Source of the DNA: a virus | IMG/VR virus record: IMGVR_UViG_3300047551_000990 | Length of the DNA stretch: 34,103 nucleotides | Reading direction: 5' to 3' (one strand) | In this document: piece after piece, positions 6,847 to 24,357 of the stretch | Layout: each line of letters opens with the position of its first letter | How positions within the stretch are numbered: position 1 is the first letter of the stretch | Notes under the pieces: generated by a model | Seen by the model: the letters and a program-made list of their open reading frames with translations, nothing else | What the model was told of the DNA's origin: nothing | The model's database searches: none | Translations under genes and position numbers: made by a program

Positions 6847-7530
6847 TTATTCTTTCCACGATAAGTGGTGTCTTTCATCCAGCCAATACGATTTCTGATG
6901 TGGCAAAATGGCTCCTGTGTGAACGTGTATCGGGAAGCCTAATTGTCTTACACGGCGTGAAAACAGCAAATCTTCGCTAATCCAGTTACCATCAATCGGG
7001 CCATCCCAGAACCAACACCAATCTTTGCCTTGATTTGGGTCGGCTTCTTCACGCATCTTTTCAAGCACACTTCGGTGAATCAAGAGGCATCCAGTTCCGC
7101 AAGCATCAATTTGAAATACTGAATTGCGGTCATATTTGAACAAAGGCAAAAAGCCTTCTGGCACATCTTGAAAAATTGCTGGCACTGGCTTTGGGTATAA
7201 ATGTTTGTGTGCATCAAATGCTGCAAAGACTAGCGCCGAAACAACTGGTCGCTCTTTATCGTGAGCGGTTTGGATAAGTAAATCAAATACTTCTGTGGAA
7301 AGTTGTTCATCCACATCAATCATCAAAAGCCAATCAGAATCGGTATTCTCTAAGAATGCCTTCACTATGCGATTGCGCATTTTAGAAAGTAATCCAGAGC
7401 CTTTGATTCTGACAAATGGCCCTAATTTGTCACGGCGGTCTTGGCAGAGTTGAAACATTCTATATGCCCACGCCGCGTTGACAGTGCCTGGGTCACAGGC
7501 GCCAATTGAAACTTTGTGTCCTGTTTTCAT
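6847..7530 (-). CDS. GT-A fold glycosyltransferase (family 2-like).
   Basis: DxD motif in LLMIDVDEQ, then GTGCLLIHRSVL and SEDLLFSRRVRQLGFPIHV. Preferred start is the ATG at 7530 (MKTGHKV). The track start at 7599 would run into the post-capsid hairpin. Confidence 0.65.
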   Translation of the reverse strand: MKTGHKVSIGACDPGTVNAAWAYRMFQLCQDRRDKLGPFVRIKGSGLLSKMRNRIVKAFLENTDSDWLLMIDVDEQLSTEVFDLLIQTAHDKERPVVSALVFAAFDAHKHLYPKPVPAIFQDVPEGFLPLFKYDRNSVFQIDACGTGCLLIHRSVLEKMREEADPNQGKDWCWFWDGPIDGNWISEDLLFSRRVRQLGFPIHVHTGAILPHQKSYWLDERHHLSWKE

Positions 7531-7555
7531 TGATTCCCCCGAATCATTATGAAGC

Positions 7556-7595
7556 GTAGGAGCAGGCAAGTCGGGGGATTCCCACCTGCTCCTAC
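7556..7595 (-). other. Perfect 11-bp stem-loop directly downstream of the major capsid gene.
   Basis: gtaggagcagg (7556-7566) pairs with cctgctcctac (7585-7595) across an 18-nt loop. No clear U-tract follows on the minus strand. Confidence 0.4.
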
Positions 7596-7620
7596 ACAAC
7601 TATTTAGTTATTCCTTCAGA

Positions 7621-9079: not shown

Positions 9080-10579
9080 CTATTTTGTGTTTTGGATTAT
9101 TGCTTTTGCCAAACGAAGTGAGATTTTACGGCTCTGTTCTTCAGTTGGCGCTGGTAGTGGGTCAATGGCACGAAGTTCTGATGACTTGTGACCAACCAAT
9201 GTTTCAGTAGCGACCCATCCATCACGAAGTTCGCGATACACGCGGATGAGGATTGCAGGGTCTCCTTCTTCGGCAGTGATAGAGAAGTCAGAATCAGGAA
9301 TCCCAAGGACTCCTTCACGCATAACGTGTTCGATGCGACCACGGGCAGTTCCGCCAGATGAATCCCATTCTACGAAATCTCCAACAACATCAACGGCGCG
9401 AACAGATTCAGTTTCAATCTCTTCTTCTTCATCTTCCATATCGTCATCATCTTCATCTTGCATATCTAATAATTCAGATAGATAGTCACGAAGGGCTTTG
9501 ATGGAATCCTCATCCAACTTGCGACCTTCCTTAATTGCGTCCAAAGCGTGAGCAATCTTCTGTCTGGCTTCAACTGTGGTAGTTGGATAGGCAGGATAGG
9601 TGACAACTGAGACATCGCCATCGGCGAGCGATACTTCAGTCAATGTGCGCTCGCTCTTATCTTTGTTCCAATTTTGACGGATGACGCGGAAAGCAAAACT
9701 CATCTGGTCAACATCGCCGCGCTCAACAAGGGTATAAATGTCACGGGCTTCTTGGGTATCTGCAAGTTCTGCATCAAAGCGAAGGCCACGGTCATCTTCA
9801 ATTAAATTCAATGTGCCATTCTTAGTGCGAGCCAAAGGCAAACCTTCGTGATTGATAAGAAGTCTGACATCAGGCATTTCAGTTAAAGTCTTACGAAACG
9901 CGCCTGGTGCGATTCTCTCTTTGAATGGTAGTGGCACGCTAGCGTCATTGAACACTGCTGCATACCCCGACAAACGCATCACGCCATCTTCTGTTTGACG
10001 TGCTTCGACATCTTGCACCACATATGTGCGGCGTTCTATCTTTTTCATTTTGCTCCTTGAATCGGCTTCAGCATCGAGTGCATCAATTTTGCGTTGCGCC
10101 CAATTTTGCGCTCTATCACTGAAGTTGGAATCGCCGCCCCATAAAAGCCAGGCAACTAATCCTGCTCCTGGATATTCAGCGTGCGAAGGGTCACTGTTTT
10201 TTGGTGCTTGCCCATCAACTTTATGGCGGGCAAACCAAGGTGCCATTTTGCGAACCTTGTTTTCTGTAATTCTTCCTGATGCCATCTCGCGTGCTTCACG
10301 CTTTGTGCCATCAGTTAAACCATCTCCCCCAAAGCCTTCTTCTAAATACTTCAAACCACGCGCAGCATTCTCGCGAATAAATGAAGGAGCAGATAAATCA
10401 ACTGCTCTTATTTCTCCACCTGGTTCCATATCTTCTGAAATCGAAATTGCAACCATCTGGTCAATTGCATCTTGCTTTGTGCTATGACAACCAATGGTTG
10501 TATATGAACCATCTGCTTCTTGTTTTACTGCTGCCCATCCATCACAATCACTTTGATTCTCTGAGATGTAATAAGGCAT
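9080..10579 (-). CDS. Capsid maturation (prohead) protease, HK97/S78 family, fused to extra N- and C-terminal domains.
   Basis: Central region: GYAAVFNDASVPLPFKERIAPGAFRKTL...LLINHEGLPLARTKNGTLNLIEDDRGLRFDAEL...DVDQMSFAFRV...VSVVTYPAYP. Around it sit about 175 aa of N-terminal domain, an acidic linker DEDDDDMEDEEEE and a C-terminal GDFVEWDSSGGTARGRIEHV domain. Confidence 0.8.
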   Translation of the reverse strand: MPYYISENQSDCDGWAAVKQEADGSYTTIGCHSTKQDAIDQMVAISISEDMEPGGEIRAVDLSAPSFIRENAARGLKYLEEGFGGDGLTDGTKREAREMASGRITENKVRKMAPWFARHKVDGQAPKNSDPSHAEYPGAGLVAWLLWGGDSNFSDRAQNWAQRKIDALDAEADSRSKMKKIERRTYVVQDVEARQTEDGVMRLSGYAAVFNDASVPLPFKERIAPGAFRKTLTEMPDVRLLINHEGLPLARTKNGTLNLIEDDRGLRFDAELADTQEARDIYTLVERGDVDQMSFAFRVIRQNWNKDKSERTLTEVSLADGDVSVVTYPAYPTTTVEARQKIAHALDAIKEGRKLDEDSIKALRDYLSELLDMQDEDDDDMEDEEEEIETESVRAVDVVGDFVEWDSSGGTARGRIEHVMREGVLGIPDSDFSITAEEGDPAILIRVYRELRDGWVATETLVGHKSSELRAIDPLPAPTEEQSRKISLRLAKAIIQNTK

Positions 10580-11967
10580 TACTCAACCTCATAAACTGCT
10601 TCAGGAGATGCAGGGTCAATTGTTGAAACTGCTTGCAATTGAGTTGATGGAACACCAGTGTGTTTGATTGATGGCATATCAAGTGCCTTTAGAACCGCTT
10701 GTGGGTCAAAGCCAACTTGAACAAGTTGAGCAATGATTTCAGAGCGGAGTTTCATACCAACTTCAGGAGCATCAGCAGCATCAATGTTCTGCAATGGCAC
10801 ACGGTGTTGGTCGCCTGCTTCGCCTAGTGGTGATAAATCTTCAACAGCGCGAACATCATTTAGTGAAAGGAAACCTTCACGAAGGCCCTTTGTGTAGGCA
10901 TCGTAGCGCTCAATTGTTGTGCCACGAAGTAGCGCATCAAGATTAAACTTGATGAAACCATCTGATTCTGGAAGTAATGGTGAGAGTGCTTGTTCAATGC
11001 GCTCCAAGAGTGGGCGAAGTGAATGTTGCACGAAAGATAAGTTCTGCGCTTCAACTGATGCAAATGACATCGCACCAGCAACAGGATGGCCCAGTAGCGA
11101 GACAGGCACGCGGAAAAGGCGGGCTATTTCCTCAACCCCGAAGCGTCTGACTTCAAGCAACTGGGCATCGGCGGCGTTTAGTGTGAGCGGCTTGAAAGAC
11201 GCTCCACCAGTTAACACGCCGATTTTGCCCGCTCTATATGGGCCAGTGTGCGTGATATTCCAATCGCGAGCAAGGTCTGAAACCTGCTCTTCTGTCATAT
11301 CACCTGGCGCTTCAATAACGCCACCAGGATTGGCAGCGTTGCCGAAATATGAAGCAGCATAAACTTCAGCAGCCATTGCAGAACCAAGAGTTACGCGGGC
11401 TGCACCGATTGGGCCAAGACCTAGAAGTTGTCCAGGAAGTCTAAAGAGCGGGATGTGAACAATTTGGTTTGCATCAAGATTAAATGAGAAGTTGCCTACA
11501 GCATCGCGAACACGATAACGAACAGGCTCCCCTGGTATTGGGCGTTCAACTAGAACATCGCGTGGATTCAAACAATACAGTTCAACAACATCGCCCAATT
11601 CATCCATAACTTTAAGGATAAAGGCGTTGCCTTCTAAATTAAGTGAAGCAATGATTTGCTCATAGAACTCAAGGCGTGTTGTCTCTGGGTTTGGATTATT
11701 TACCCAAGTTGGAACTTCGCCATAAACAGCAGCATATGAAATACGGTTGCGACCACGACGAACATAAGCGCCTAGCGGTAATGAAGAGATTGTATCGCCA
11801 AGCAAACGAACGCAGGCATATACGGTTGACATACGAATTGCAGTTTCAGAATTAACATCAACGCCTGCTGGCGATGCGTATGCTGGTCTGCCTGGAATCA
11901 GCGGTTCAACAAACTGATTCTGCGCACGCTTTTCACCTGCTGCGCGAAGTCTTTTAGATAGACTCAT
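10579..11967 (-). CDS. Portal protein (HK97 family).
   Basis: 462 aa. STVYACVRLLGDTISSLPLGAYV is a typical portal motif. It lies directly upstream of the protease with a 1-nt overlap. Confidence 0.85.
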   Translation of the reverse strand: MSLSKRLRAAGEKRAQNQFVEPLIPGRPAYASPAGVDVNSETAIRMSTVYACVRLLGDTISSLPLGAYVRRGRNRISYAAVYGEVPTWVNNPNPETTRLEFYEQIIASLNLEGNAFILKVMDELGDVVELYCLNPRDVLVERPIPGEPVRYRVRDAVGNFSFNLDANQIVHIPLFRLPGQLLGLGPIGAARVTLGSAMAAEVYAASYFGNAANPGGVIEAPGDMTEEQVSDLARDWNITHTGPYRAGKIGVLTGGASFKPLTLNAADAQLLEVRRFGVEEIARLFRVPVSLLGHPVAGAMSFASVEAQNLSFVQHSLRPLLERIEQALSPLLPESDGFIKFNLDALLRGTTIERYDAYTKGLREGFLSLNDVRAVEDLSPLGEAGDQHRVPLQNIDAADAPEVGMKLRSEIIAQLVQVGFDPQAVLKALDMPSIKHTGVPSTQLQAVSTIDPASPEAVYEVE

Positions 11968-13036
11968 TGCCTGCCTTTTCTGTTCTTAATTGATACCAAC
12001 CGCCATCCCAAAGGGTTAGCAGTTTGCGGAAGTAATCTTCGTACTCTTTGGCGATAACATCTAGCGCATATCGGCCAACAGAATGTTCTCTGATTTTCTT
12101 TCGGTCTAGTGTTTTAACGTTTTCGGCTGCATCTATAAACTCTTGCAGCGTTCTGCAACGGTAGCCTGTCAGACCGTTGATGTTGTTTTCTGTAAATGCG
12201 CCCCAGTCGGTTGTGATAGTAGGCGTGCCACAGGCTTGGGCTTCAATAACTACATTTCCAAATGGTTCGATGTAGAGCGTTGGAGCAAAGGTTGCGATGG
12301 CATTTCCCATCAACTCTGCTCTTTGCTCTGGACCTACTGAGCCTACAAACTCGCCATAGCCAGTGGCCTGCCCTGGACCTGCCAAGATAAGTCTCTTGCC
12401 AAGGCGCTGGCAGACTTCTTGCGCTATTTGATAGCCCTTGCGTTCAATCAGGCGGCCAATGAAGAGGTAGTAATCGCCTTTGCCTTCACCAAGTGGAAAC
12501 ATCTCTGGTTCTAAATAACCTGGAATCACAGTATCAAAGAATTGACCATCAACTGTTGTCGGGTTCTTGTGACCTGCATAGATTGAGTGCATCCAGGCAT
12601 ATGATTCAAAAACTCTAAACTTACTAAATACTCCGCCATAACCAACGCCAAATTCAACGCTAGTGTGATTCGGGTAGGCATCGGCAATTGGCTTATGTGC
12701 GTATCCACCGATGAGGCAGATGAAATCTTGCGGTTGCAAATGGCTCTGCATCAGCCTAATCACATTGGCATTGAAGATTTGCCAGTGCAGAGCGCTGGTG
12801 TCGAAACTTGCCTGCGTGTAGTGGCTGTTGCCAACTGCCTCGGCGCGGCGCTCTTCTGAGATGCAGGTGATGAGTTTGGTAACTGGCGCTTCTACCTGCT
12901 CGCCAGCGTATAAATAAACTTCGTGACCAAGACCTGTCATCATTATGCAAAAGCGCCTGACCTTTTCGGTGAAGGCGCATCCTGCGAATTCTTTAGTTAC
13001 TTGTGTATGTGGCAATGCCACAACGTGAAATCTCAT
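11954..13036 (-). CDS. GT-B fold glycosyltransferase (GT4-like).
   Basis: YYLFIGRLIERKGYQIA...LILAGPG...EPFGNVVIEAQACGTP (E-x7-E motif). Its 3' end overlaps the portal start by 14 nt. Confidence 0.75.
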   Translation of the reverse strand: MRFHVVALPHTQVTKEFAGCAFTEKVRRFCIMMTGLGHEVYLYAGEQVEAPVTKLITCISEERRAEAVGNSHYTQASFDTSALHWQIFNANVIRLMQSHLQPQDFICLIGGYAHKPIADAYPNHTSVEFGVGYGGVFSKFRVFESYAWMHSIYAGHKNPTTVDGQFFDTVIPGYLEPEMFPLGEGKGDYYLFIGRLIERKGYQIAQEVCQRLGKRLILAGPGQATGYGEFVGSVGPEQRAELMGNAIATFAPTLYIEPFGNVVIEAQACGTPTITTDWGAFTENNINGLTGYRCRTLQEFIDAAENVKTLDRKKIREHSVGRYALDVIAKEYEDYFRKLLTLWDGGWYQLRTEKAGNESI

Positions 13037-13055
13037 TACATCCCCCGATGTTAGA

Positions 13056-13280
13056 TTACTTATTTAGTGCTGCGATTTCTTCTGCGGTCAATCCGAGTGC
13101 TGCAAGTTTAGCCTCGGCACTAGCCTTAGCCTCTGCCTTAGCCTGTGCCTCTGCTTCCTCTGCTGCCTTGATTGCAGCAAAGGCAACTGCATCTGCCTCG
13201 CGCTGAGCGATTTCTTCAGCCGTTAGTTCTACCTCTGCGACTACTCCTGTTGAGCAGTCCACTACGAGTTTGTGTGTCAT
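13056..13280 (-). CDS. Small Ala/Glu/Lys-rich coiled-coil protein, possibly a fibre-associated or assembly factor.
   Basis: 74 aa: GVVAEVELTAEEIAQREADAVAF...AKAEAKASAEAKLAALGLTAEEIAALNK. Confidence 0.5.
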   Translation of the reverse strand: MTHKLVVDCSTGVVAEVELTAEEIAQREADAVAFAAIKAAEEAEAQAKAEAKASAEAKLAALGLTAEEIAALNK

Positions 13281-13292
13281 TGTTTTCCTTTC

Positions 13293-13799
13293 TTAGGAGT
13301 TTTTAATGCCGTATAAGGTGGCGGTTGAGTATTGGGATAATGTGCCTGAACTTGGCGTAATTGTAATAGAAGTAATTGCACTTGTAAGGGTTGCTAGACC
13401 TGCAATTAAATCTAAACTGTTACTTGATGATGCGTTGTGTTCAACTGCTACATCGGAAGAAATACTTTTATTATTACTACTTGTATAATTTGGAATATAC
13501 ATTTCACAATTACTAAAAGTATTACTTGTAGAAATACTGGTATTTCCATATAGCCAATTTGTCGTTGCAGTTGTGCTGCCTACAGTGCTGCCATCTGCAT
13601 AAAGTATGCGCCCAGAATAAGTAGGGCTACCATTAAAAGTAACATCTAAAGAACCATATTGATTACTTGTTCGGGAATCTCTTGTTGATACTTTTACAAC
13701 TAAATCAGTATAAGTAGCAGGTATAGAACTAAAAGTAATATTAGCCGCCCCACCGCTACCAACAGTCACAGTTGCTATTGCTTTATATGTTGTAGGCAT
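13293..13799 (-). CDS. Fibre-module paralogue C (beta-rich, ends LYGIKNS).
   Basis: 168 aa. MPTTYKAIATVTVGSGGAANITFSSIPATYTDLVV aligns with the two upstream genes. Confidence 0.6.
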   Translation of the reverse strand: MPTTYKAIATVTVGSGGAANITFSSIPATYTDLVVKVSTRDSRTSNQYGSLDVTFNGSPTYSGRILYADGSTVGSTTATTNWLYGNTSISTSNTFSNCEMYIPNYTSSNNKSISSDVAVEHNASSSNSLDLIAGLATLTSAITSITITPSSGTLSQYSTATLYGIKNS

Positions 13800-14284
13800 T
13801 ATGCCGCCTTAATTCCGTAGAGGGTGAAGGTTGAGCCTGAAGTAAAAGTGTTAGGGCTTTTTACATCTACCTGAGTAATTGCGGCTGTGCTACGCCATAA
13901 ACCAACTGTTGCAGTTGCTGATATAGCAGCAGCAGATGAACGACCAATAGCAGTTTTATATGTAGTGCTGTTAGAATAATTCATAATGTGAATTATATTT
14001 GGGTAAAAGTCTGCGGTGCTTTGATTGTAAAATCTCATCTCGCTTACGCTAGAAAACCTGCCTGATGCGGCGGCTGACCCATCGCCTTGTAGATAAGTTG
14101 CTGAGTAGTTTGTTCCAGTATCGCCATTAAATTGTAGGAAAAGTCTGTCAGTATTACTAGAAGTTAATTTGACTGTTGCTACTAAAACAAGGTCAGTATA
14201 GGAACCGCTAATTGAAGTAAAGGAAACTGTCGCTTGTGCGCTGCCTAGCGTTGTCGTTGCTATCGGCTCATAAGTAATTGCCAT
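13799..14284 (-). CDS. Fibre-module paralogue B (ends LYGIKAA).
   Basis: 161 aa. MAITYEPIATTTLGSAQATVSFTSISGSYTDLVL, NGDTGTNYS, and LWRSTAAITQV shared with paralogue A. Confidence 0.6.
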   Translation of the reverse strand: MAITYEPIATTTLGSAQATVSFTSISGSYTDLVLVATVKLTSSNTDRLFLQFNGDTGTNYSATYLQGDGSAAASGRFSSVSEMRFYNQSTADFYPNIIHIMNYSNSTTYKTAIGRSSAAAISATATVGLWRSTAAITQVDVKSPNTFTSGSTFTLYGIKAA

Positions 14285-14287
14285 TGG

Positions 14288-14896
14288 CTATGCCCCCTTT
14301 ATGCCGTATAGGGCGAAGTGTGAGTATTGTGCAAAGTCATTTGCGGATGGGTCAAATGAAACTGAAGTTATGGCAGATGTGCTACGCCATAAACCTGAAG
14401 CCAAAACAATAGTTCCAGAATATGGACTACCTCCGCCGTTCAAGTCATTACCACTAAGAACTCTAAAAGTCTTAAATTTATTAGTATTGGCATAATCTAA
14501 AATGTCTATAACTACACCGCCAAAAGCGCTTGTAACTGAAGATGTAGAAGCAGTAGCAAACCAACCTAAGTTCATACTTGTCGCGCTAGTTCCAGCATCA
14601 GTATTGGCGCTTGTTCCATTTCCATAAAGCCAATGCCAAGCATAATTAGAACCAGTATCACTATTAACTCTTGTATAAAGTTGGTCAATAGAAAAATCTG
14701 TTCTAGTTCCGCGAGCAATACCTCTAATTTGTAAATGTGTATAGGTAGCAGGAATAGAAGTAAACTCTACAGTAGCAGCACCGCCACTACCAACAGATAC
14801 AGTAGCGATGGATTCAAAGTCAGTAGGAATATACGGGTCATTACCTACCAACAGATTACCTCTGCGTAGTTTATTCTTTATGCTGACTACAGCCAT
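14288..14896 (-). CDS. Fibre-module paralogue A, carrying the extra N-terminal LLVGN module (ends LYGIKGA).
   Basis: 202 aa. MAVVSIKNKLRRGNLLVGNDPYIP, then FESIATVSVGSGGAATVEFTSIPATYTHLQI, NSDTGSNYA and LWRSTSAITSV. Confidence 0.6.
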   Translation of the reverse strand: MAVVSIKNKLRRGNLLVGNDPYIPTDFESIATVSVGSGGAATVEFTSIPATYTHLQIRGIARGTRTDFSIDQLYTRVNSDTGSNYAWHWLYGNGTSANTDAGTSATSMNLGWFATASTSSVTSAFGGVVIDILDYANTNKFKTFRVLSGNDLNGGGSPYSGTIVLASGLWRSTSAITSVSFDPSANDFAQYSHFALYGIKGA

Positions 14897-15258
14897 TAAA
14901 TTACTACCTCATCCCAAGACAGGGTTGCTTCATTCCAGGTGTACATCTTGTCATCAGTCGGATAGGCGACAGGAGGCTGCCATCTAGCATCAGCATCTAG
15001 TGTCCAAGAAGGATATGGCTGAGGGGCATAGAAGTAATCATTAGCAGCATCATAAGTATAACCAATGCCTGCATAGTTTTTACGGAAGTTGCCGTTGTAT
15101 GAAGTCTGCTTCCACTTGGTATCTTCACCAAAGAGTGACTTGCAGAATAAAATACCCTTGACTTCGCTTTCAACTCCGTCAAGTAGTAGTTCATCGTTGG
15201 CTACAACGATTACCTGTGTGACTATGTTGTTGTCATCTAGTTGTGCAAAGTGTGCCAT
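14896..15258 (-). CDS. Conserved phage hypothetical protein, often seen next to fibre genes.
   Basis: 120 aa. MAHFAQLDDNNIVTQVIVV...WKQTSYNGNFRKNYAGIGYTYD...PQPYPSW. I recognise the family pattern but know no function for it. Confidence 0.55.
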   Translation of the reverse strand: MAHFAQLDDNNIVTQVIVVANDELLLDGVESEVKGILFCKSLFGEDTKWKQTSYNGNFRKNYAGIGYTYDAANDYFYAPQPYPSWTLDADARWQPPVAYPTDDKMYTWNEATLSWDEVVI

Positions 15259-15267
15259 TGTATTCCC

Positions 15268-16173
15268 TTAATAAGTAATTGACCCTGAAGCATTAAACTG
15301 ATAAATATGATATGAACCTGAAGTAGTATATGTAGGCGAACCTGTTGTAGATGCTGCTGCTTGGAGTGCGCGAACAATAACTACGCCTGAACCGCCAGCA
15401 CCGCCATCTCGACTTCCGCCTCCTGTTTGACGACCAGCGGCACCACCACCGCCACCTGTATTAGCAGTACCAGCAGAACCATTTCCATTTGTTCCATTAA
15501 AAGCATTACCGCCACCACCAGAGCCACCAGTTCCACCAGTTGTTCCAGTGAAATTGTGACCACCGCCACCACCACCTGCGTAAGTAACTGACGAACCTGT
15601 AATAGAAACTGCTACTCCATTACCGCCATTACCGCCTGCTCCAGAATTACCTGCTCCACCTTGTGAACCTGCTGCACCAGCACCTCCGCCACCACCTGCT
15701 GCGCCATTTCCAGAATTACCAGCACCACCAGCATAACCTTGATTAGCGGTGCCTGCGCCACCAGCAGAAGATGATTCACCACCAGTACCACCACCAGAGC
15801 CACCAGTTCCACCAGCACCTTGTCCTGCTAATCCACCACCAGTTGAAGTGATAGTAGAAAATACAGAATTGTTTCCAGCAGAACTATTAGCATCACCAAT
15901 ACCACCAGCGCCTCCAGCGCCAATGGTTACAGTATAAGAAGTTCCAACAAGCAAACTTAATGAAGATTCAACGGAGCCTCCGCCACCCGTAGCGGTAACA
16001 GTTGAGCGCAAACCACCTGCGCCGCCACCACCTGCAGAGTTTGAAGCAGAACCACCGCCTCCGCCCCCGCCTGCAACAACAAGATAATCAACAGTTACGG
16101 GAGGAATATAGTAAGCATTACCAACAAGCAGGCTACGGCTAAAGGTTCCGTTCTTAAGACTTCTGATTGCCAT
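15268..16173 (-). CDS. Glycine-rich (PGRS-like composition) fibre-like protein 2.
   Basis: Preferred start is the ATG at 16173 (TAATG overlap with the upstream stop): MAIRSLKNGTFSRSLLVGNAYYIPPVTVDYLVVAGGGGGGG. It is colinear with the upstream paralogue. Confidence 0.6.
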   Translation of the reverse strand: MAIRSLKNGTFSRSLLVGNAYYIPPVTVDYLVVAGGGGGGGSASNSAGGGGAGGLRSTVTATGGGGSVESSLSLLVGTSYTVTIGAGGAGGIGDANSSAGNNSVFSTITSTGGGLAGQGAGGTGGSGGGTGGESSSAGGAGTANQGYAGGAGNSGNGAAGGGGGAGAAGSQGGAGNSGAGGNGGNGVAVSITGSSVTYAGGGGGGHNFTGTTGGTGGSGGGGNAFNGTNGNGSAGTANTGGGGGAAGRQTGGGSRDGGAGGSGVVIVRALQAAASTTGSPTYTTSGSYHIYQFNASGSITY

Positions 16174-17057
16174 TAGAAGGTTATGCTCCCGCTTCCGTTC
16201 CATTGATAAATTGTGTATCCACCTGATTCAGTTCTAGTCGGAGAACCAGTTGTTGAGGCTGCAGTAATAGAACCAGGAATTCTGATAATTACTATACCGC
16301 TTCCGCCAGCGCCACCATTGCCGCCATTTTGTTCAGAAGCACCGCCGCCTCCGCCTGTGTTTGCTGTCCCAGCGTTACCAGTATTACCACCAGCACCACC
16401 ACCACCAGTTCCGCCTGCGCCATTCGTTCCACTCGTTCCAGCACCACCACCTCCACCACCGCCTCTGGTTACTGATGAACCAGTAATAGATGAAGCAACG
16501 CCATTACCACCAGCCATACCGTTATTTGAATTTCCTGAGTTAGTTGCACCGACAGCACCAGCACCGCCACCTCCGCCGCCGCCACTAGATGAATTAACAT
16601 TAAAATTACCGCCATTTCCACCAGCGTAACCTTGATTAGCAGTTCCAGCGCCACCAGTTTGTCCACTTAATGCAGCCGAACCACCGCCACCTGAACCACC
16701 GCTTGCACCATTACCAAATAGACGACCGCCTAAACCACCGCCAGTTGAAGTGATAGTAGAAAATACAGAATTAGAACCATTTGCGGAAAATGTGCCACCT
16801 GCGCCAACTGTTACTGTATAGGAAACTCCATAAGATAAAGATAATCTTGACTCAGCAGATGCTCCCCCGCCAGATGTTTCACCTACAACAGAACAACGAT
16901 AACCTCCTGCACCTCCGCCACCGCCTCTATTGTCACCACCGCTTCCACCACCTGCAACAACTAAATATTCAACAGTAGATAATGGACTATAGGCAGCATT
17001 ACCAACAAGCAAACTAGACGGTGATGTGTTACCTGTCTTGTAACTTGTGATTGACAT
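16173..17057 (-). CDS. Glycine-rich (PGRS-like composition) fibre-like protein 1.
   Basis: 294 aa. MSITSYKTGNTSPSSLLVGNAAYSPLSTVEYLVVAGGGSGG...SYTVTVGAGG...NSVFSTITSTGGG...GTANQGYAGG...GSGIVIIRIPG...YTIYQWNGSGSITF. Confidence 0.6.
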   Translation of the reverse strand: MSITSYKTGNTSPSSLLVGNAAYSPLSTVEYLVVAGGGSGGDNRGGGGGAGGYRCSVVGETSGGGASAESRLSLSYGVSYTVTVGAGGTFSANGSNSVFSTITSTGGGLGGRLFGNGASGGSGGGGSAALSGQTGGAGTANQGYAGGNGGNFNVNSSSGGGGGGGAGAVGATNSGNSNNGMAGGNGVASSITGSSVTRGGGGGGGAGTSGTNGAGGTGGGGAGGNTGNAGTANTGGGGGASEQNGGNGGAGGSGIVIIRIPGSITAASTTGSPTRTESGGYTIYQWNGSGSITF

Positions 17058-17383
17058 TAGACCGAAGCCTCATCTCCAAACGCCTGGAATACTAGGTTTG
17101 CCGTTGAAGCGTATACTGAAATCACATCCGTTGCTGCAAGAGTTAAGCCAACGGTAATCAGTGTTGAGTCAGATGCACCTACTGTAATGTCATAGCCAAT
17201 GTAGTGAGCATTGGTAATTGACGCACCAGCAGGACGTACTGCAAGACGAAATGTTGCAGCAGTAGCAGTTAGGTTAGCAACAGAGATTGTTGATACTACT
17301 GCTTCCTTTGCTGAAGGTACTGTGTACAGGGTTGTTAGTGTTGTCGCAGATGGGTTTGATTGCCCAAGAACTTTTTTTGCCAT
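17057..17383 (-). CDS. Small beta-rich structural-module protein.
   Basis: 108 aa. TLTTLYTVPSAKEAVVSTISVANLTATAATFRLAVRP...DVISVYASTANLVFQAFGDE. Its stop overlaps the next start by 1 nt. Confidence 0.5.
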   Translation of the reverse strand: MAKKVLGQSNPSATTLTTLYTVPSAKEAVVSTISVANLTATAATFRLAVRPAGASITNAHYIGYDITVGASDSTLITVGLTLAATDVISVYASTANLVFQAFGDEASV

Positions 17384-17402
17384 TATTTATTTCTCCTTTG
17401 GG

Positions 17403-19478
17403 TTATGCGCCCATCAACATAAAACTTGCTGGATAAACATTGAGTTCTGAACCAGATGGACCTGTTGCACCTGTTGGCCCAGTAGAACCTGTTGAACCAA
17501 CTGGACCTGTTGCGCCTGTTGCACCTACTGGACCAGTTGCACCAACGGGACCAGTTGCACCAACAGGACCAGTTGCACCAACGGGTCCTGTAGCACCTAC
17601 TGGACCAGTTGCACCAACGGGACCAGTTGCACCAGTATCACCTTGAACGCCTTGTGGTCCAGTCGCGCCAACTGGACCTGTTGCCCCAACTGCTCCAGTT
17701 GCACCAACTGCGCCAGTTGCACCTACTGGTCCTGTTGCACCTGTTGGTCCAACAAGATTGACACCAGCAGGCCATACACCAGCGGCCTTTGGTCCAAAAA
17801 TTTGATTACTTGAAGTGTTGATATAGAAGTCGCCATTAACGCCTTCAGTAGTAGGGTCAACAGTGCCATTAAGAACTGAAAATCCTTGTGGTCCTGTTAC
17901 ACCTGTTGGACCTGTTGCACCGACTGGTCCTGTGGCACCTATTGGTCCTGTAGCACCAACTGGTCCTGTTGCACCGACATCACCTTGAATTCCTTGAACA
18001 CCTTGTGGTCCTGTTGCACCAGTTGCGCCAACTGCGCCTTGTGGTCCTGTTGGTCCTGTTGGTCCTTCAGCGCCAGCAGGTCCTGTTACACCTGTTGGTC
18101 CTGTTGCTCCAACATCACCTTGAATTCCTTGTGGTCCTGTGGCACCTACTGGTCCTGTTGCACCTACTGGTCCTGTTGCGCCAACTGGTCCTGTCGCTCC
18201 GACTGGTCCTGTTGCTCCAACATCGCCCTGAACGCCTTGTGGTCCAGTTGCGCCAATAGGTCCTGTTGGACCTGTGGCGCCTGTCGCACCTGTCGCACCA
18301 ACTGGTCCTGTAGCACCAACTGGTCCTGTTGCACCTGTCGGACCAACTACGCCTGCTGAAACAATTGCAACAATCAACTGATGATTGCTTGCAAAGTTTG
18401 TTGTGCCTGTACCACCTGATGCTGTAAGAGTTACTGGGACTTCAACATAGCCTGTTTGAAGTGTTGGTGTTGCCGATACTGTCCATTTTTGGTAGTTATC
18501 GGATAAAGATTTATCTTGAACAATAATTACATCGTTTGTTTTGATAAGCGCTAAAAATATGTCAATGTCAACGCCATCATCATTTATGTGACTGATATTG
18601 ATTTGAGTAGCAGAAATTTGTGTAGCATTATTCCAAAGAATGTCACCAGTGCTAGGGTCGCCCGTTGTGCTAGTTGTATTTGCTCTGTAGTCATAATAGT
18701 TAGCAGAACCACCGTCAGCACCAGTTGCTCCCGTTGCGCCTGTTGCACCTGTAGCACCTGTCGGTCCTGTAGCGCCTGTGGCTCCAATAGGTCCAGTAGG
18801 ACCTGTTGAGCCTGTTGGTCCTTGAATGTTTCCTACATTTTCCCATTGACTATTGCCAACGCTCCATACATAAAGGTCACCAGCGCCGACAATGTAAGCA
18901 TCGCCCTGGTTGCCAGTTGGATGTGCTGCTTGCAGCGCTGCAAGAGTTGCATAAGAACCAAGAATTTGAATTCCAGCACCAGTAGCGCCAGTTGCACCTG
19001 TCGGTCCAGTCGCACCAGTAATACCTGTAGGACCAGTAGCACCTGTTGCACCTACTGGGCCAGTTGAACCTTGAGGACCTGTTGCGCCAATTGAACCTGT
19101 AGCACCTGTTGCACCTACTGGACCAGTTGAACCAGTATCGCCTTGAGGACCTGTTGCACCGACATTACCTTGAATTCCAGTTGCACCAGTTGCGCCAACA
19201 TTTCCTTGAATGCCTTGAATTCCTTGAATACCTTGTGGGCCTGTTGCACCTGTTGGTCCAATATCGCCAGTTGCACCGACAGGACCTGTGACACCTGTTG
19301 GTCCTGTTAAACCTTGAACACCAGTTGGACCTGTTACACCTGTAGCACCAGTAGCACCTACTGGACCAGTTGCACCAGCAGGACCTGTTGCACCTGTTGG
19401 ACCGACGGGGCCTGCAACGCCAACATCGCTTACAACAACGGTGTTTGTATCTTCAATTATCTCGACTGTATTAGACAC
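17403..19478 (-). CDS. Collagen-like triple-helix repeat fibre protein.
   Basis: 691 aa with four long uninterrupted G-x-y tracts, mostly [12 protein letters not shown] triplets, separated by three non-collagen domains. Confidence 0.85.
17521..17628. repeat. Six tandem 18-bp units inside the collagen-like gene. 17521-17556 is exactly repeated at 17593-17628.
   Basis: Units read directly: gcacctactggaccagtt, gcaccaacgggaccagtt, gcaccaacaggaccagtt, gcaccaacgggtcctgta, gcacctactggaccagtt, gcaccaacgggaccagtt. Confidence 0.85.
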
Positions 19479-19821
19479 GCGTTACCTCGCCTGCAACTGT
19501 GATTTGACCTTGGATAAGTCTTGTGACAACTCCCCCTGATGAAATCTCTAAATCATAAACATAAAAACCTGCATCAAGAGCAGCAGTCTGCACTGCTGTC
19601 GCTGACAAAACTAATTTACCTTGTGCGCCAGTGATAACGATGCCACCGTTAGATGTGTTCAATGTTAAGGCAGCAGTATCAGAATTATAGTTCTGACGCA
19701 ATTGCATCGCTGCTGTGTAGCCAGTTAGGTTTATGACGGTTCCAGCGGAATCTTTATAGATAACATTTAGATTCCAATTAGAACCTTGGTCCATTGTAAA
19801 ATTGTAAATACCAGCAGTCAT
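19471..19821 (-). CDS. Small beta-sandwich-like structural protein.
   Basis: 116 aa. [27 protein letters not shown]...[45 protein letters not shown]. This pattern is common in small Ig-like phage structural proteins. Confidence 0.45.
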
Positions 19822-19955
19822 TACTTCTCCGTTGCCCAGACTAGGAATCCGCCAATTGCCATTAACGCCAGCGGAAGTGAAATCATTGCAACCCCGATTG
19901 TAAAGAGCGCAACACCAAAAACTTCAGCGGCAATTGCCCAATCTATTTTCTTCAT
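19821..19955 (-). CDS. Small membrane protein (44 aa, two hydrophobic helices), absent from the ORF track.
   Basis: MKKIDWAIAAEVFGVALFTIGVAMISLPLALMAIGGFLVWATEK. AAGGAG lies 5 nt upstream and overlaps the terL stop. Its TAA shares one base with the downstream ATG (TAATG). Confidence 0.5.
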   Translation of the reverse strand: MKKIDWAIAAEVFGVALFTIGVAMISLPLALMAIGGFLVWATEK

Positions 19956-19964
19956 TGTTACTCC

Positions 19965-21485
19965 TTACAGGTTTAGTGAAAAGAATTTTGGAACTGGCGC
20001 CTTTGCTTCAGGGGCGCTAGTGGCGCGGTCATAGCCAAAGATGCTGGCAACGGCTGCGTCAATCTTACGTTTGCTATTTGATTTGCTAACCATCACACCG
20101 CGTGAAGATTGCTTTGTCACACAGTTATTCATATGACGTGCTAAGCGTTCATCGCCATCGTGCGTGAAAGAACCATTAACAACTGCTTCATAAAACTTCT
20201 GCGTTGCTGGCACCATACGCTCGGCGCTGTTTGGATATGAGACTACTGGCAGTCCTTCTTCGTCGAGGACCATAAATGTTCGCTGCCATCTGGCAGGGTC
20301 GAAAACAATCTCTCGCACACTAAAGCGACTATCGCGTGCAGTGTTGATAATGGTTTGTTCGACTTCTGCGACTGGAACGTGCCAAGTGTTGTCTGCATCG
20401 TTTGGCCTTTCCCATAATCCAACAACCATCAAGTGTGGTTTTTCTCCACCAAGTAACCAAGCAACCAAAGCAGTTGAGTCATTAGAGAACGCACCATCAA
20501 ATGCCAAGATAACTTCTTCGCCTACTTCTGGTTCACGTTCTTTATCAATCAATGCTTCCCAAGTTCCAGAAGGAAGCCAGGCAGTCTGAGTAGATGTCCA
20601 GATGTTCAATCGTTTAGTTTTGAATTCTGCTTCTGGCGTCCTCAACACTGCGCTGGCAAAATCATCAGCGGCGCAAATATCTCCATAACCTGGGTTTGCA
20701 ATCAGCCAGGCTTCTTCAGTTCTGTAATCAATCAAATCATTGCCTTCATACCAAGCAAAGAAAAATGATGGGTCATTTACTTCACCGCTTACAATTCGTT
20801 TTCCGTAATTGTAAAGGTCATAGCAAAGTGAATCTTTACCGCTTGAATCTACTTTAACACCAGCAGTTGTAATCGCTACCAACATCGGGTCTTGTCTTGC
20901 GCCCATCGCCAGCGACATTACATCGAAGAGTTCACGATTTGGTTGTGCGTGTAATTCGTCAAAGGCTACAAAGGTTGGCGATAGACCTTCTTTGGTAAAT
21001 GCTTCAGCCGATAGCGCTCGATAACTTGTGCCATTCTTTGGATTGTAAATGGCATCGCGATAAACCTGCAAGAATTGCAATTCAGGTTCTAATCGAATCA
21101 TCTCTTTGACAGTTCCAAAAACAATTCTGGCTTGGTCACGGTCAGCAGCACAAGAATAAATCTCGCCACCTTGTGGTCCAAGAACTAGATGCTCCAATGC
21201 CACAGATGATAGCCACGCTGATTTACCTTGCTTGCGGGGAAGGCCAATCAAGGCAATCTTATGTTTTAACTTACCATTGTCTTTGACAGCAAATAGATTG
21301 CGAGTTAATTCCTTTTGCCAATCGCGGAATATCAATGGTTCGCCAGAACTACCTGCAACTGAATCTTTAGTTATCTTGCAAAGCGCCTCGGCGAAGTCAA
21401 TGACATCATCACCGCGAGAGCGTTGATATTCGTCGGGTGACACTGCCGAGATGTATTTCGGTGGCCATCCCCCAATGGCTGTCAT
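19965..21485 (-). CDS. terL: Terminase large subunit.
   Basis: 506 aa. Walker A-like GLPRKQGKS, Walker B-like TFVAFDELH, and a C-terminal nuclease region (AFDGAFSNDSTALV, KIDAAVA). A 1-nt overlap links it to terS. Confidence 0.9.
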   Translation of the reverse strand: MTAIGGWPPKYISAVSPDEYQRSRGDDVIDFAEALCKITKDSVAGSSGEPLIFRDWQKELTRNLFAVKDNGKLKHKIALIGLPRKQGKSAWLSSVALEHLVLGPQGGEIYSCAADRDQARIVFGTVKEMIRLEPELQFLQVYRDAIYNPKNGTSYRALSAEAFTKEGLSPTFVAFDELHAQPNRELFDVMSLAMGARQDPMLVAITTAGVKVDSSGKDSLCYDLYNYGKRIVSGEVNDPSFFFAWYEGNDLIDYRTEEAWLIANPGYGDICAADDFASAVLRTPEAEFKTKRLNIWTSTQTAWLPSGTWEALIDKEREPEVGEEVILAFDGAFSNDSTALVAWLLGGEKPHLMVVGLWERPNDADNTWHVPVAEVEQTIINTARDSRFSVREIVFDPARWQRTFMVLDEEGLPVVSYPNSAERMVPATQKFYEAVVNGSFTHDGDERLARHMNNCVTKQSSRGVMVSKSNSKRKIDAAVASIFGYDRATSAPEAKAPVPKFFSLNL

Positions 21486-21937
21486 TAGTTATCCCGTTTA
21501 TTTCTTCGCGCTAGCAATTCATCTAAGGCTGATGCCTTTTGAACTTCAGCAACACCAAGGCGTGAACGTGATGTTGGGTCAAAACCTAAAGCCGCTAATG
21601 ATTCACGAAAGGCTTTATTGACTGCTGTGAATGCGCGTGCATCTGCTGCTTCAAGTGTTGCCATAAATTTATTTTGCGCAGCGACGTTTGCATCAGCCAA
21701 TCTGCACGCAGTTTCCACCGCTTGCATATCTGAATCAGGAGAGAGCCAAGTGATTGCAGTTGCCCAAGCGCGTTCCCATAATCTTGCGCCTTCTGCTTGA
21801 AGGTACGCAGGTGTTTGTGGGATTTCGCGTGCCATCGCAAGTGGCGTCACACTGGCCAACGCAGGCAAAGGCCGTTGGCCTGGATTGCCTGTTGCCCTTT
21901 TTACTTCGATTGGTTTTGGTGGTCTGCCCGCTGTCAT
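21485..21937 (-). CDS. terS: Terminase small subunit, P27 family.
   Basis: MTAGRPPKPIEVKRATGNPGQRPLP...GFDPTSRSRLGV is the typical P27-type N- and C-terminal signature. Confidence 0.85.
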   Translation of the reverse strand: MTAGRPPKPIEVKRATGNPGQRPLPALASVTPLAMAREIPQTPAYLQAEGARLWERAWATAITWLSPDSDMQAVETACRLADANVAAQNKFMATLEAADARAFTAVNKAFRESLAALGFDPTSRSRLGVAEVQKASALDELLARRNKRDN

Positions 21938-22078
21938 TTTTTCCTTTTCAAATAAAAAACAAAATAAAACTGAGTTTCATAATTTCGCAGAGATGTACGA
22001 AGCCAGGGCGTCGGGGTGGATAGCCGTTCGCGTGTATGAGGATTTTAGGCGTACGGGAAGATGCCACGGGGGGGTGTT
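21938..22078. other. Intergenic region between HNH and terS. This is the likely location of the cos site and possibly a late promoter.
   Basis: 141-bp non-coding gap, the largest in the late region. It has an A/T-rich half and a G/C-rich half (cacgggggggtg, cgtcggggtgg). Placement follows the HNH-terS(P27)-terL arrangement. The exact ends cannot be read from the sequence. Confidence 0.3.
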
Positions 22079-22384
22079 CTATCTATCGCCTTTTTCGCTA
22101 TTGCATTTTCTGCACAACACTTGCAAGTTCGAGATTTCATAACGCAACGATGGGTCAAGGTCAACCAATGGAATGATGTGGTCAACTGTTAAATCTTTTG
22201 TTGCTCCACATTGTTTGCACCAAGGATGAATGGCACGCAATTGTTTAGATAACTTGCGCCACTTGTAATCGTAACCTCGGTCTAGCCTAGAGGGTCTGCC
22301 CCTCTCTTTGATTCGTTTGCATTGCAAACATCTAACATCACGAACAATAGTTCCGCAATCAACGCAAGGTCTAGGAAGCATCAT
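22079..22384 (-). CDS. HNH endonuclease, terminase-associated type.
   Basis: CVDCG...C..C, then WCKQCGATKDLTVDHIIPLV...NLQVLCRKCNSEKGD. It lies immediately upstream of terS. I prefer the start at MMLPRPC (22384). Confidence 0.8.
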   Translation of the reverse strand: MMLPRPCVDCGTIVRDVRCLQCKRIKERGRPSRLDRGYDYKWRKLSKQLRAIHPWCKQCGATKDLTVDHIIPLVDLDPSLRYEISNLQVLCRKCNSEKGDR

Positions 22385-22769
22385 CGTGTTTAACAAGATA
22401 TTCAATCGCCATTGCAAGATGTGATTGGCTATCCTTAAAGAATCCTAAACCTGAATTACATCTCCAACATAACAATCCACGAATTTTTAATGTTTCGTGA
22501 TTATGGTCAATGATTAACTTCTTACCAATCTCTTGAGCAGTGATGCCACATATTGCGCACGCATTGTTCTGTTCATCGAGCAATGTTTCATAATCTTCAC
22601 GATTGCCATTGCGAACAACCTTCCGATGAATCTGCCGACACGTTCTGCATATGTTGTGTCTTTTGTTTTCAATTACATTAACAAATCTGAAATTATCTAA
22701 TGATAGAACTCTAAGACATTTACGGCATTGCTTAGCGTCCTCATTCGATGTCCTCATCTTCTTCATCAT
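22371..22769 (-). CDS. Recombination endonuclease VII family protein.
   Basis: NNACAICGITAQEIGKKLIIDHNHETLKIRGLLCWRCNSGLGFFKD matches the T4 endo VII signature. Confidence 0.75.
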   Translation of the reverse strand: MMKKMRTSNEDAKQCRKCLRVLSLDNFRFVNVIENKRHNICRTCRQIHRKVVRNGNREDYETLLDEQNNACAICGITAQEIGKKLIIDHNHETLKIRGLLCWRCNSGLGFFKDSQSHLAMAIEYLVKHDDAS

Positions 22770-22941
22770 CCATTTCTAAACCGAGTGAAGCCATTCGGTC
22801 ACTGATAGGTAATGACATATACATCGTCAATGTGGATTGCACTGCCCTTGTGAGCAGAGTTTCGATTGCATCAAAAGGCAATGATTCGTCTGTTGATAAT
22901 TCTGTCTCAACTTCCCCGATACTAATTTGAATGTTTAGCAT
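22741..22941 (-). CDS. Small acidic hypothetical protein.
   Basis: 66-aa ORF ending LGLEMDDEEDEDIE, in an operon context with overlaps on both sides. Confidence 0.5.
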   Translation of the reverse strand: MLNIQISIGEVETELSTDESLPFDAIETLLTRAVQSTLTMYMSLPISDRMASLGLEMDDEEDEDIE

Positions 22942-23135
22942 CCTTTGATTTCCAATCGTGTGTCTAGTAGTTCGTCAATGAACTGTTCAACAATCTCACG
23001 TTGTTCGCTGGAGAAGTCTGACTTGTTGCGAGTAACCGCTGCGTGGAACAGGGCCTCATCTATCTCTTCAATTTGACTAGAGATAGCAGAATCTGATAAC
23101 GATAGTGTACCAGGTTCTTTTGACAACATTGTCAA
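22935..23135 (-). CDS. Small hypothetical protein.
   Basis: 66-aa ORF with 4-nt and 7-nt overlaps to its neighbours. Confidence 0.5.
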   Translation of the reverse strand: MTMLSKEPGTLSLSDSAISSQIEEIDEALFHAAVTRNKSDFSSEQREIVEQFIDELLDTRLEIKGC

Positions 23136-23872: not shown

Positions 23873-24228
23873 TAGAACGGAACTCCTTCTGATTCGCTTT
23901 TGGCTTTGACTGGTGCTGCCCAATAATTCGGGGCGCTCTCTATCGTTTCAAACAAACTCATATTGGAACAATGATGCTCTGCCAGAATCACACGGTCCTT
24001 ACTTGGGGCAGCCCATCTGATTCTATTGACCGACCTTTCAACCGCCTCAAATGAGACCCTGGTTCTATGTGCCTCAAATGTCTGTAACCCTGAAATCTTC
24101 TTGATGATTTCTTCCTCAATGGTCAACCGCTCTTTACCCAAGACTTTGGCAAAGCCTGCCCAAGAGATACCTGACCAAACGACGGCGGCGCAACGATTAC
24201 ATATGATGGGTTTGAAATCTCCAGTCAT
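23872..24228 (-). CDS. Hypothetical protein.
   Basis: 118-aa ORF with GAAAAGG upstream of the ATG at 24228. Confidence 0.5.
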   Translation of the reverse strand: MTGDFKPIICNRCAAVVWSGISWAGFAKVLGKERLTIEEEIIKKISGLQTFEAHRTRVSFEAVERSVNRIRWAAPSKDRVILAEHHCSNMSLFETIESAPNYWAAPVKAKSESEGVPF

Positions 24229-24249
24229 ATTACGAACCTTTTCGCCGCT

Positions 24250-24355
24250 GAACCGAACCGAACCTGAACCCCTCTAAAGAGGGGGTTCAGAGGTTCGGTT
24301 ATTCGGTGCTTTTGCCAGTTTTTACAGGTTCGGTTAGGTTCGGTTAGGTTCGGTT
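24250..24355. repeat. Iteron-like cluster of GGTTCGGTT / GGTTC motifs with a central imperfect palindrome; candidate origin of replication or protein-binding array.
   Basis: gaaccgaaccgaacc (24250-24264, inverted copies). Palindrome tgaacccctct-aa-agagggggttca (24265-24289). aggttcggtt at 24291-24300. Three perfect tandem aggttcggtt units at 24326-24355. A T-rich spacer gcttttgccagttttta lies between them. Confidence 0.5.
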
Positions 24356-24357
24356 GG

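Follow-up and report, generated by a model that had tools for sequence, protein, structure and literature searches.

The closest described counterparts of a gene block that lies between the large terminase (terL) and portal genes of the virus genome IMGVR_UViG_3300047551_000990 are found among phage tail fibres and host-recognition islands. In phages T5 and DT57C, the N-termini of the lateral fibres are clamped by a dodecameric collar of the protein LtfC, which is essential for fibre attachment (PMC10713586, PMC10038345), and the DT57C fibre is branched, a second fibre protein docking on the first (PMC10038345, PMC10713586, PMC4728585). Phage Pam3 has a glycine-rich and TNF-like tail-fibre tip (gp24/gp25; entry 7YPX) with a dedicated chaperone (PMC9608196). 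In the phages E7 and F5, a variable region has been described as a 'tail fibre/host recognition' island (PMC10202952); the same paper cites Mizuno et al. 2014 (PMC3909814) for 'metaviromic islands'.

The window analysed here is the whole of this 34,103-nucleotide stretch. Nearly every gene lies on the minus strand, and the 127-bp direct repeat at the termini (1–127 and 33977–34103) identifies the contig as circular, with a genome size of 33,976 bp. The block between terL and the portal gene is optional among related genomes and consists of a conserved frame and a hypervariable tip cassette. On balance, we favour the reading that it encodes an accessory lateral (side) tail-fibre system, probably glycosylated and equipped with exchangeable adhesins. 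The putative hosts belong to Candidatus (Ca.) Nanopelagicales (acI), a group that outnumbers all other bacteria in many lakes. To our knowledge, their phages are almost unstudied, and those of the E7/F5 type are the only cultured ones.

An optional block at the terL–portal junction

A preliminary description of this DNA had placed 12 open reading frames (ORFs) between terL and the portal gene. All 12 are present, with the reported lengths, at 19955–11954 on the minus strand, and their junctions are as tight as described: TAATG overlaps occur at 19821, 16173 and 13799, neighbouring genes elsewhere overlap or are no more than 19 nt apart, and the 3′ end of the last gene, coding for a family 4 glycosyltransferase (GT4), runs 14 nt into the start of the portal gene. 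A misassembly can be excluded, since dozens of independent IMG/VR contigs carry identical junctions. The block lies within the packaging/head operon, with coupled junctions, in agreement with the preliminary description. Promoter-like sites (9 versus 17.6 expected) and terminator-like sites (9 versus 11.8 expected) are not enriched, and a separate transcription unit was rejected on that basis.

Searches with the portal protein identified more than 100 related loci in IMG/VR. The counted set comprises the 52 that hold both the portal gene and tm44, a 44-amino acid (aa) two-helix membrane ORF located at 19821..19955 (minus strand) in the window. The first ORF after terL, tm44 was originally counted as part of the block. 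It is present in all 52 loci, with or without a block, and is thus a resident of the terL–portal junction, so that the optional block has 11 genes, at 19821–11954. On the basis of a weak similarity to phiPsal1_003, Pontimonas phage phiPsal1, the closest cultured phage, probably has a tm44 counterpart too. The phiPsal1 gene order is terL, a 42-aa ORF and, with nothing in between, the portal gene, and the break in synteny noted in the preliminary description is real by this comparison.

The junction is empty in 23 of the 52 loci, where the tm44 stop overlaps the portal ATG (TAATG or TGATG), and filled in the other 29, with blocks of 1.2–9.0 kb. In the window, the same stop overlaps the ATG of the first block gene; tm44 is always translationally coupled to the gene that follows. 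By these counts, the block behaves as a cassette at this position, a possibility raised in the preliminary description. The terL–portal junction is normally considered invariant in HK97-like phages; it can act as a seamless insertion site for a whole putative fibre operon.

Every block opens with the gene of a 116-aa protein, p116 (in two loci it was not called as an ORF and was recovered by tblastn). In all blocks but one, the next gene codes for a collagen-like protein of 560–1368 aa (in one locus it is interrupted by a frameshift); each collagen-containing cassette closes with GT4 or, in two loci, with an unclassified 353-aa ORF. The minimal block (locus L171, 1322–2547) consists of p116 and a 292-aa protein, with neither a collagen gene nor GT4; this non-collagen, fibre-like protein has a repetitive N-terminus and a globular beta-rich C-terminal domain.

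Relatives with 98–100% identical portals are colinear with the window from the small terminase gene (terS) through the collagen-like shaft gene and again from about 13058–13340 on, and carry differing genes in the 13.06–17.45 kb segment. The block is thus divided into a conserved frame (p116, shaft and GT4) and a hypervariable tip cassette (from the gene of a 108-aa protein, p108, to that of a 74-aa protein, cc74). This is the pattern of a hypervariable island: genes are replaced at strain level between conserved flanks, and those inside are of fibre type.

The conserved frame

The p116 gene is located at 19471..19821 (minus strand). The primary family of its product is phrog_1084 (E = 6e-28), which has no assigned function; phrog_3304, annotated as 'L-shaped tail fiber protein assembly', is also matched (residues 5–114; E = 1e-13), as is, weakly, a head–tail joining PHROG. 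AlphaFold2 (AF2) models were built for p116 and for par161, a protein of the tip cassette, and compared by Foldseek. The p116 model is all-beta, a compact single immunoglobulin (Ig)-like beta-sandwich domain with a predicted local distance difference test (pLDDT) score of 93. Its top PDB match is 8hqz_T (E = 2e-7; query template modelling score, TMq, 0.72), a 137-residue chain of the DT57C baseplate entry, which we take to be LtfC from its chain length. Another PDB sequence match, 26dk_M ('Structural protein', E = 6e-4), was set aside, as the entry could not be traced to a publication. Homologues of p116 in HTVC008M, cyanomyophages, Melnitz and Streptomyces phages lie amid baseplate and tail-fibre genes. 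Among the 25 complete cassettes, a fibre-like gene directly follows p116 in all 23 in which p116 was called, as it does in L171; in the window, the end of p116 and the start of the shaft gene overlap by 8 nt. These features make p116 a candidate fibre collar or anchor of the LtfC/p132 type.

The shaft gene (17403..19478, minus strand) encodes 691 aa of G-[AP]-T repeats with three non-collagen interruptions, ending in ...SFMLMGA. The collagen family PF01391 is matched in nine stretches (E = 4e-64; 212.6 bits, cutoff 27.2). G-X-Y runs cover 450 of the 691 residues (65%), with Thr at Y in 57%, and the repeats match a PHROG labelled 'virion structural protein'. Two related loci have shafts of another build. 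A 1368-aa collagen protein (L019, 1007–5113) has its tip fused to the shaft and a C-terminus resembling the S74 chaperone. A 986-aa collagen protein (L032, 2528–5488) ends in ...YIIYGVK, like the par-type beta-sandwiches described below; because the C-terminal motif of this shaft is par-type, a fusion of a par-type domain to the collagen shaft is suggested.

GT4 (11954..13036, minus strand; 360 aa) is the last gene of the frame and encodes an enzyme of GT-B type. It matches Glycos_transf_1 (PF00534; E = 4e-14; 53 bits, cutoff 26.4) and phrog_3408 (E = 7e-78), and its E-x7-E motif is intact, reading EPFGNVVIE in the translation. GT4 goes with the collagen gene and not with the rest of the genome: it is absent from the collagen-free L171 and from the block-less genomes. 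The frame also moves as a unit, since an E7-like contig (L131) has a compact p116–collagen–GT4 trio on its E7-type backbone, directly upstream of its fibre genes. The cyanophage homologue of GT4 (40% identical) is encoded between baseplate-hub and tail-fibre genes. In Synechococcus phage S-CAM7 (L084, record 10837–25907), the GT4 homologue has a 2OG-Fe(II) oxygenase gene two genes downstream and a very large tail-fibre gene nearby, a context which hints that the fibre proteins of cyanomyophages, too, are modified post-translationally. Orthology of GT4 with the group-1 glycosyltransferase encoded after the major capsid protein (MCP) gene of phiPsal1 was considered and rejected, the match being restricted to 47 residues and at family level.

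The tip cassette and its joint motifs

The tip cassette (13058..17423, minus strand) is the hypervariable core of the block. It begins with the gene for p108 (17057..17383, minus strand), homologues of which occur in E7 and in phiPsal1; p108 is 47% identical to phiPsal1_021, encoded next to the phiPsal1 tail fibre. It matches internal or N-terminal portions of the PHROG tail-fibre families 11338 and 693 and nothing in the PDB, and we propose that it is a joint or adaptor between shaft and tip.

Two glycine-rich proteins follow. gly294 (16173..17057, minus strand; 294 aa) matches PF21722 (41.2 bits, cutoff 24.3) and phrog_2295 (E = 1e-47) and has the N-terminal tag MSITSYKTGNTSPSSLLVGNAAYSP. 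gly311 (minus strand) extends over 15268..16203 (311 aa) or, from its second ATG, over 15268..16173 (301 aa), the latter start giving the TAATG junction with gly294 at 16173; it matches PF21722 with 58.6 bits (same cutoff) and has a tag of the same type, MAIRSLKNGTFSRSLLVGNAYYIPP. The next gene, p120 (14896..15258, minus strand; 120 aa), belongs to phrog_7759 (E = 1e-44) and gave no match in Pfam or, searched as a profile, in the PDB. In the 29 cassettes, p120 and a glycine-rich gene occur together in 16 and are both absent from 13, with no discordant case, and p120 is a candidate assembly factor or chaperone of the glycine-rich proteins.

The remaining genes form a trio of paralogues (par) and its presumed partner. 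par202 (14288..14896, minus strand; 202 aa) is the first and the only member with the tag, MAVVSIKNKLRRGNLLVGNDPYIP; par161 (13799..14284, minus strand; 161 aa) is the second, and par168 (13293..13799, minus strand; 168 aa) is the third, joined to it by the TAATG at 13799. The paralogy indicated in the preliminary description is genuine by sequence comparison, and its collagen repeats, two glycine-rich proteins and GT4 are likewise supported by family matches. The AF2 model of par161 is a 12-strand beta-sandwich (pLDDT 89.5). Structure comparison found no close solved relative of par161: the PDB matches are weak and galectin/ConA-like, with a template modelling score (TM) of at most 0.46, and we do not assign it to the lectins. 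In BFVD, the matches (TM 0.80–0.92) have this domain fused to collagen repeats, lambda Stf repeats, an FN3 domain or a glycine-rich domain, or occur in a protein labelled tail fibre. These fusions and labels and the apparent fusion in L032 point to the par fold as a fibre-end domain. The par family has more than 7800 environmental homologues and no Pfam family, and its profile gave nothing significant among PDB sequences.

The last gene, cc74 (13056..13280, minus strand; 74 aa), encodes an Ala/Glu/Lys-rich helical protein and comes after the trio not only in the window but also in E7 and in relatives. In the 29 cassettes, both cc74 and the trio are present in nine and absent from 16, and the trio occurs alone in four; cc74 is therefore proposed, tentatively, as an assembly factor of the trio. 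Comparison of the small proteins with NCBIfam and Pfam gave nothing apart from PF21722.

Two short motifs recur at the joints between these proteins. The protein encoded upstream of p108 ends in [FL]M[LM]MGA or LMLGGM in 80 of 82 loci, and this C-terminal motif is found on unrelated shafts: ...SFMLMGA in the window collagen and ...SVFMLMGA in the 559-aa fibre of E7. A tag of about 24 aa with the pattern M-x-x-x-S-[IVLY]-K-[NT]...SLLVGN-x-[YF]-x-P stands at the N-terminus of three kinds of protein encoded downstream of p108: 84 of 126 glycine-rich proteins, 14 other tip proteins and, in 14 loci, the first par trio member only. These motifs and partner regularities are those expected of a modular fibre with a shaft, a joint, tagged tips and one assembly factor per tip type.

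Sharing of the tip cassette with phage E7

The tip cassette is the sole part of the 34-kb window with DNA similarity to LanE43-AprE7 (E7; OX376640), a cultured phage of Ca. Planktophila, itself an abundant lake bacterium; the TerL, portal and MCP sequences of the two phages show no relationship. In E7, the genes are ordered 559-aa tail fibre, p108, two glycine-rich proteins, three par proteins, cc74, p120 and a GT2-like gene, similar to the order in the window with p120 alone displaced. The 559-aa fibre has no detected identity to a window protein. Amino acid identity is 92 per cent for p108, 77 per cent for p120, 64 per cent for cc74 and 50–56% for the glycine-rich proteins, and the E7 GT2-like protein is 25% identical to that of the window. 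The three par proteins are 45–52% identical to the window gene of the same position and 34–39% to the others: par202 matches the first E7 trio gene with 52% (the other two with 36–39%), and par168 matches the third with 45% (the other two with 34–37%). Both the order of the trio and its position-specific best matches are thus kept between the two phages.

The neighbourhoods of the best 80 p108 loci in IMG/VR were also compared. All have an E7-type backbone, with p108 immediately behind the fibre gene; the sub-modules that come next are the same ones, shuffled into various combinations. The preliminary description had named, as a ground against its reading, relatives that carry the block as ordinary minor tail proteins. 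This applies in part: its carriage is routine and its distal half is part of the published E7 island; none of the proteins has been characterized.

Two observations concern mobility and host. An HNH-type homing endonuclease gene lies between the second and third par trio members of L131 (8125–8697) and may drive the mobility of the cassette. A 7.4-kb contig in a Ca. Nanopelagicaceae metagenome-assembled genome bin (L194, JBMTBW010000032.1) contains a portal gene (777–2156) 82% identical to that of the window, which agrees, weakly, with an acI host.

Other features of the genome

The minus-strand order starts with terS (21485–21937), terL (19965..21485), the twelve ORFs, the portal gene (10579..11967), an S78 protease and an HK97-type capsid protein, and continues with a GT2-like gene, an adaptor, a tail terminator, two tail-tube paralogues, a probable tape-measure gene, a Dit-like protein and a 594-aa fibre. 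TerL matches PF03354, PF20441 and phrog_9 (E = 1.5e-112) and is closest to TerL of phiPsal1 (50.6% identical), and the portal protein matches PF04860 (E = 6e-85). No family match was obtained for the probable tape-measure protein, and no DNA near-identical to the window was found in cultured phages. A WhiB-like regulator, an actinophage marker, is encoded at 28957–29430; together with the affinity of TerL, it supports the earlier assignment to the actinophages. The conventional tail tip reported earlier is also present, consisting of the Dit-like protein and the 594-aa fibre, which runs across the contig ends (from about 972 to 1 and on from 33976 to 33164) and has a C-terminus of the S74 intramolecular-chaperone type.

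The prohead protease (9080–10579) is unusually long (499 aa); its S78 domain occupies residues 190–344, and there is a weak C-terminal match to Hva1_TUDOR. In several close relatives, the tblastn match to the protease starts about 370 nt past the portal gene, which indicates that its N-terminal third is variable. The GT2-like glycosyltransferase gene (6847–7599; phrog_34859), located between the capsid and head–tail adaptor genes, is found in block-less relatives too; its E7 homologue closes the E7 fibre island. It is not orthologous to the GT2-like gene of phiPsal1 and may glycosylate capsid or tail proteins. An SLT-domain protein (28583–28960) and a CHAP/NlpC-P60 lysin (32138–32743) are encoded elsewhere, and genes for an HNH endonuclease (22079–22417) and an endonuclease VII (22371–22769) lie directly upstream of terS.

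The tandem major-tail-protein paralogues (5166–5669 and 4740–5162) code for proteins of 167 and 140 aa, respectively, which are 56% identical to each other; the longer one is extended at its N-terminus by about 28 aa. A T5-style p140/p132 arrangement, in which they would track the block, was considered. Two copies are present in each of the 25 block-carrying loci that extend to the tail genes, and the block-less L039 and phiPsal1 have one. The association is not strict: the block-less L174, L176 and L184 have two as well, and the paralogues were for this reason dropped as evidence.

Possible function of the block

In the lateral-fibre model, p116 would form a collar or anchor on the tail and hold the short, beta-prone N-terminus of the shaft, a Thr-rich collagen-like trimer of 691-aa chains translationally coupled to it. 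The G-X-Thr repeats of the shaft would be the most likely target of O-glycosylation by GT4, by analogy with Bacillus BclA; the alternative target would be another virion protein. p108 would cap the C-terminal ...FMLMGA tail of the shaft and offer a docking site for tip proteins via their N-terminal tag (S-x-K-N/T ... SLLVGN-x-Y-x-P). The tagged tips would be the two glycine-rich adhesin-like proteins and the first beta-sandwich paralogue, the other two paralogues probably assembling with par202; p120 would be the assembly partner of the glycine-rich proteins, and cc74 that of the trio. Such a fibre would act alongside the conventional 594-aa tail-tip fibre and make a first contact with cells of Ca. 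Nanopelagicales that is reversible and probably directed at glycans, and swaps of tip cassettes within and between phage families would change the host range. Most of the small proteins, for which the preliminary description could name no function, can in this way be given at least a structural role; p108, p120 and cc74 have no recognizable fold.

A more far-reaching version is a plug-and-play fibre, in which three connectors (the FMLMGA tail, p108 and the SLLVGN tag) mount unrelated adhesins on one glycosylated collagen shaft, with a heterotrimeric tip of three fixed-order paralogues, and whole tip sets are traded between unrelated phage families infecting the dominant freshwater actinobacteria. 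We put forward this acI-phage 'socket standard' only tentatively, as a possibility that is more doubtful than the fibre itself.

Several points weigh against a lateral tail fibre. A position beside the portal gene and terL is unusual for tail-fibre genes and could hint at the neck or head. The tail location of p116 is deduced from its fold and gene neighbourhood, and Ig-like folds are common; moreover, the T5 collar is seated on a special ring of tube protein, and the link between block and tail-tube paralogues is not strict here. Neither phmmer nor a six-sequence profile of the glycine-rich proteins, searched against all PDB sequences, gave a relevant match, such as Pam3 gp24, S16 gp38 or ALK, so that a polyglycine-II adhesin fold is no more than a candidate. 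p108, p120 and cc74 belong to no recognizable family. The FMLMGA tail falls inside the DNA shared with E7, so that part of its conservation could reflect a recombination joint and not docking. Finally, actinophage glycosyltransferases have been suggested to modify DNA or the host surface and cell wall (PMC10202952).

Alternatively, the fibres may sit on the neck or head, with p116 as a collar at the head–tail junction or on the capsid and the collagen fibres as whiskers or head fibres, which may serve in first contact or in sensing the environment. Comparable systems are T4 fibritin whiskers, phi29 head fibres and the phiCbK head filament. The location of the genes between terL and portal, translationally coupled inside the head/packaging module, would suit this arrangement, as would the conventional tail-tip fibre with its S74-type C-terminus that the virion already has, and Ig-like proteins often decorate capsids. 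We nevertheless regard it as unlikely: both by structure and by profile, p116 best matches a tail collar protein of the T5 family, its homologues in cultured phages are all in baseplate or tail-fibre clusters, the p116–collagen–GT4 trio of L131 directly precedes tail-fibre genes, and the tip cassette, which makes up the distal half of the block, is found behind the tail fibre in E7 and about 80 E7-like contigs. The same observations speak against the head fibres or capsid decoration put forward in the preliminary description, whose third suggestion, an auxiliary adhesion system, was the right general idea. Family and profile scans of the 12 proteins matched no head-fibre or decoration family, and the MCP is conserved irrespective of the presence of the block.

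It is also conceivable, though quite improbable in our opinion, that the proteins share a locus without forming one fibre. The tip proteins would then serve as alternative receptor-binding proteins, bound independently to the baseplate or to Dit, the collagen protein would be a fibre of its own, and the conserved terminal motifs would be recombination joints or baseplate-docking peptides. The occurrence of the same tip proteins with a non-collagen fibre in E7 is consistent with this, as are the FMLMGA codons inside the DNA common to both phages and the presence in L131 of two proteins with a tail of LMLMGG or LFLGGM type beside a single p108 gene. However, the C-terminal motif is kept at the protein level on shafts that are wholly different upstream, L032 appears to fuse a par-type domain, as judged from its C-terminal motif, to the collagen shaft, and block-less relatives with a similar Dit and tail have none of these proteins. 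Least of all do we expect a non-structural moron, in which GT4 and its partners would alter phage DNA or the envelope of the host, superinfection exclusion and anti-restriction being possible purposes; this we consider very improbable. PHROG does place glycosyltransferase families under 'moron, auxiliary metabolic gene and host takeover', and DNA or cell-wall glycosylation was suggested for E7 (PMC10202952), but 10 of the 11 genes do not code for an enzyme: the shaft, p108 and the trio are of fibre type, and p116 and the two glycine-rich proteins look structural. In addition, no promoter or terminator signal was found for the block, which is part of the late structural operon, and GT4 follows the collagen gene rather than the remaining genome.

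Comparison with known systems

If the lateral-fibre model is correct, the locus provides a testable map of host-range determinants that the cultured acI phages share with an uncultured siphovirus-like family. Host prediction could make use of the tip cassette, as could the tracking of phage–host arms races in metagenomes; large unnamed families (par, p108 and p120) would gain a structural role, and fibre retargeting would be possible if the connector motifs really dock.

The proposed fibre would work in a mode comparable to that of the T5/DT57C fibres or the lambda side fibres. It would be set apart from both by its collagen-like, probably glycosylated shaft, by exchangeable tips docked through tags, by a cassette common to several phage families and by its place at the terL–portal junction. 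Bacillus collagen-like filaments of the BclA type are glycosylated, and virion glycosylation is known in mycobacteriophages (Che8 enzymes). Similar to these systems, the window has G-P-T/G-A-T repeats with Thr at Y and a glycosyltransferase gene beside structural genes, and the shaft is a putative glycosylation target. The glycine-rich proteins resemble Pam3 gp24/gp25 and S16 gp38 (PMC9608196) in GGGGxGG-type motifs interleaved with beta-strands, in their proposed position at the fibre tip and in the small partner gene downstream (here p120); they differ in that no sequence-level similarity was detected, and p120 is unlike Tfa or gp25.

With the L-shaped fibres of T5 and DT57C (PMC10038345, PMC10713586, PMC4728585), the locus has in common a small single-domain Ig-like protein adjoining a long fibre gene and fibres that are accessory to a central receptor-binding device. 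In contrast to T5 and DT57C, a collagen-like shaft takes the place of a coiled coil or beta-helix; the site of the locus is the terL–portal junction and not the tail genes; the tips are separate proteins, presumably joined by short tags; a glycosyltransferase is part of the unit; and the host is a Gram-positive actinobacterium.

The E7/F5 island (PMC10202952) has the same gene families and the same strain-level hypervariability between conserved genes. Its publication gives gene labels only, with neither joints nor partner rules. In E7, the cassette stands behind a non-collagen tail fibre in the tail region, with a GT2-like gene adjoining, whereas in the window it is combined with a p116–collagen frame and GT4 at the terL–portal junction of an unrelated backbone. 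Variable fibre islands of acI phages, collagen-like phage fibres, LtfC-type collars and glycine-rich tips were thus each known already. The new elements are their combination, the terL–portal placement as a clean presence/absence polymorphism, the frame-plus-cassette anatomy and the conserved connectors.

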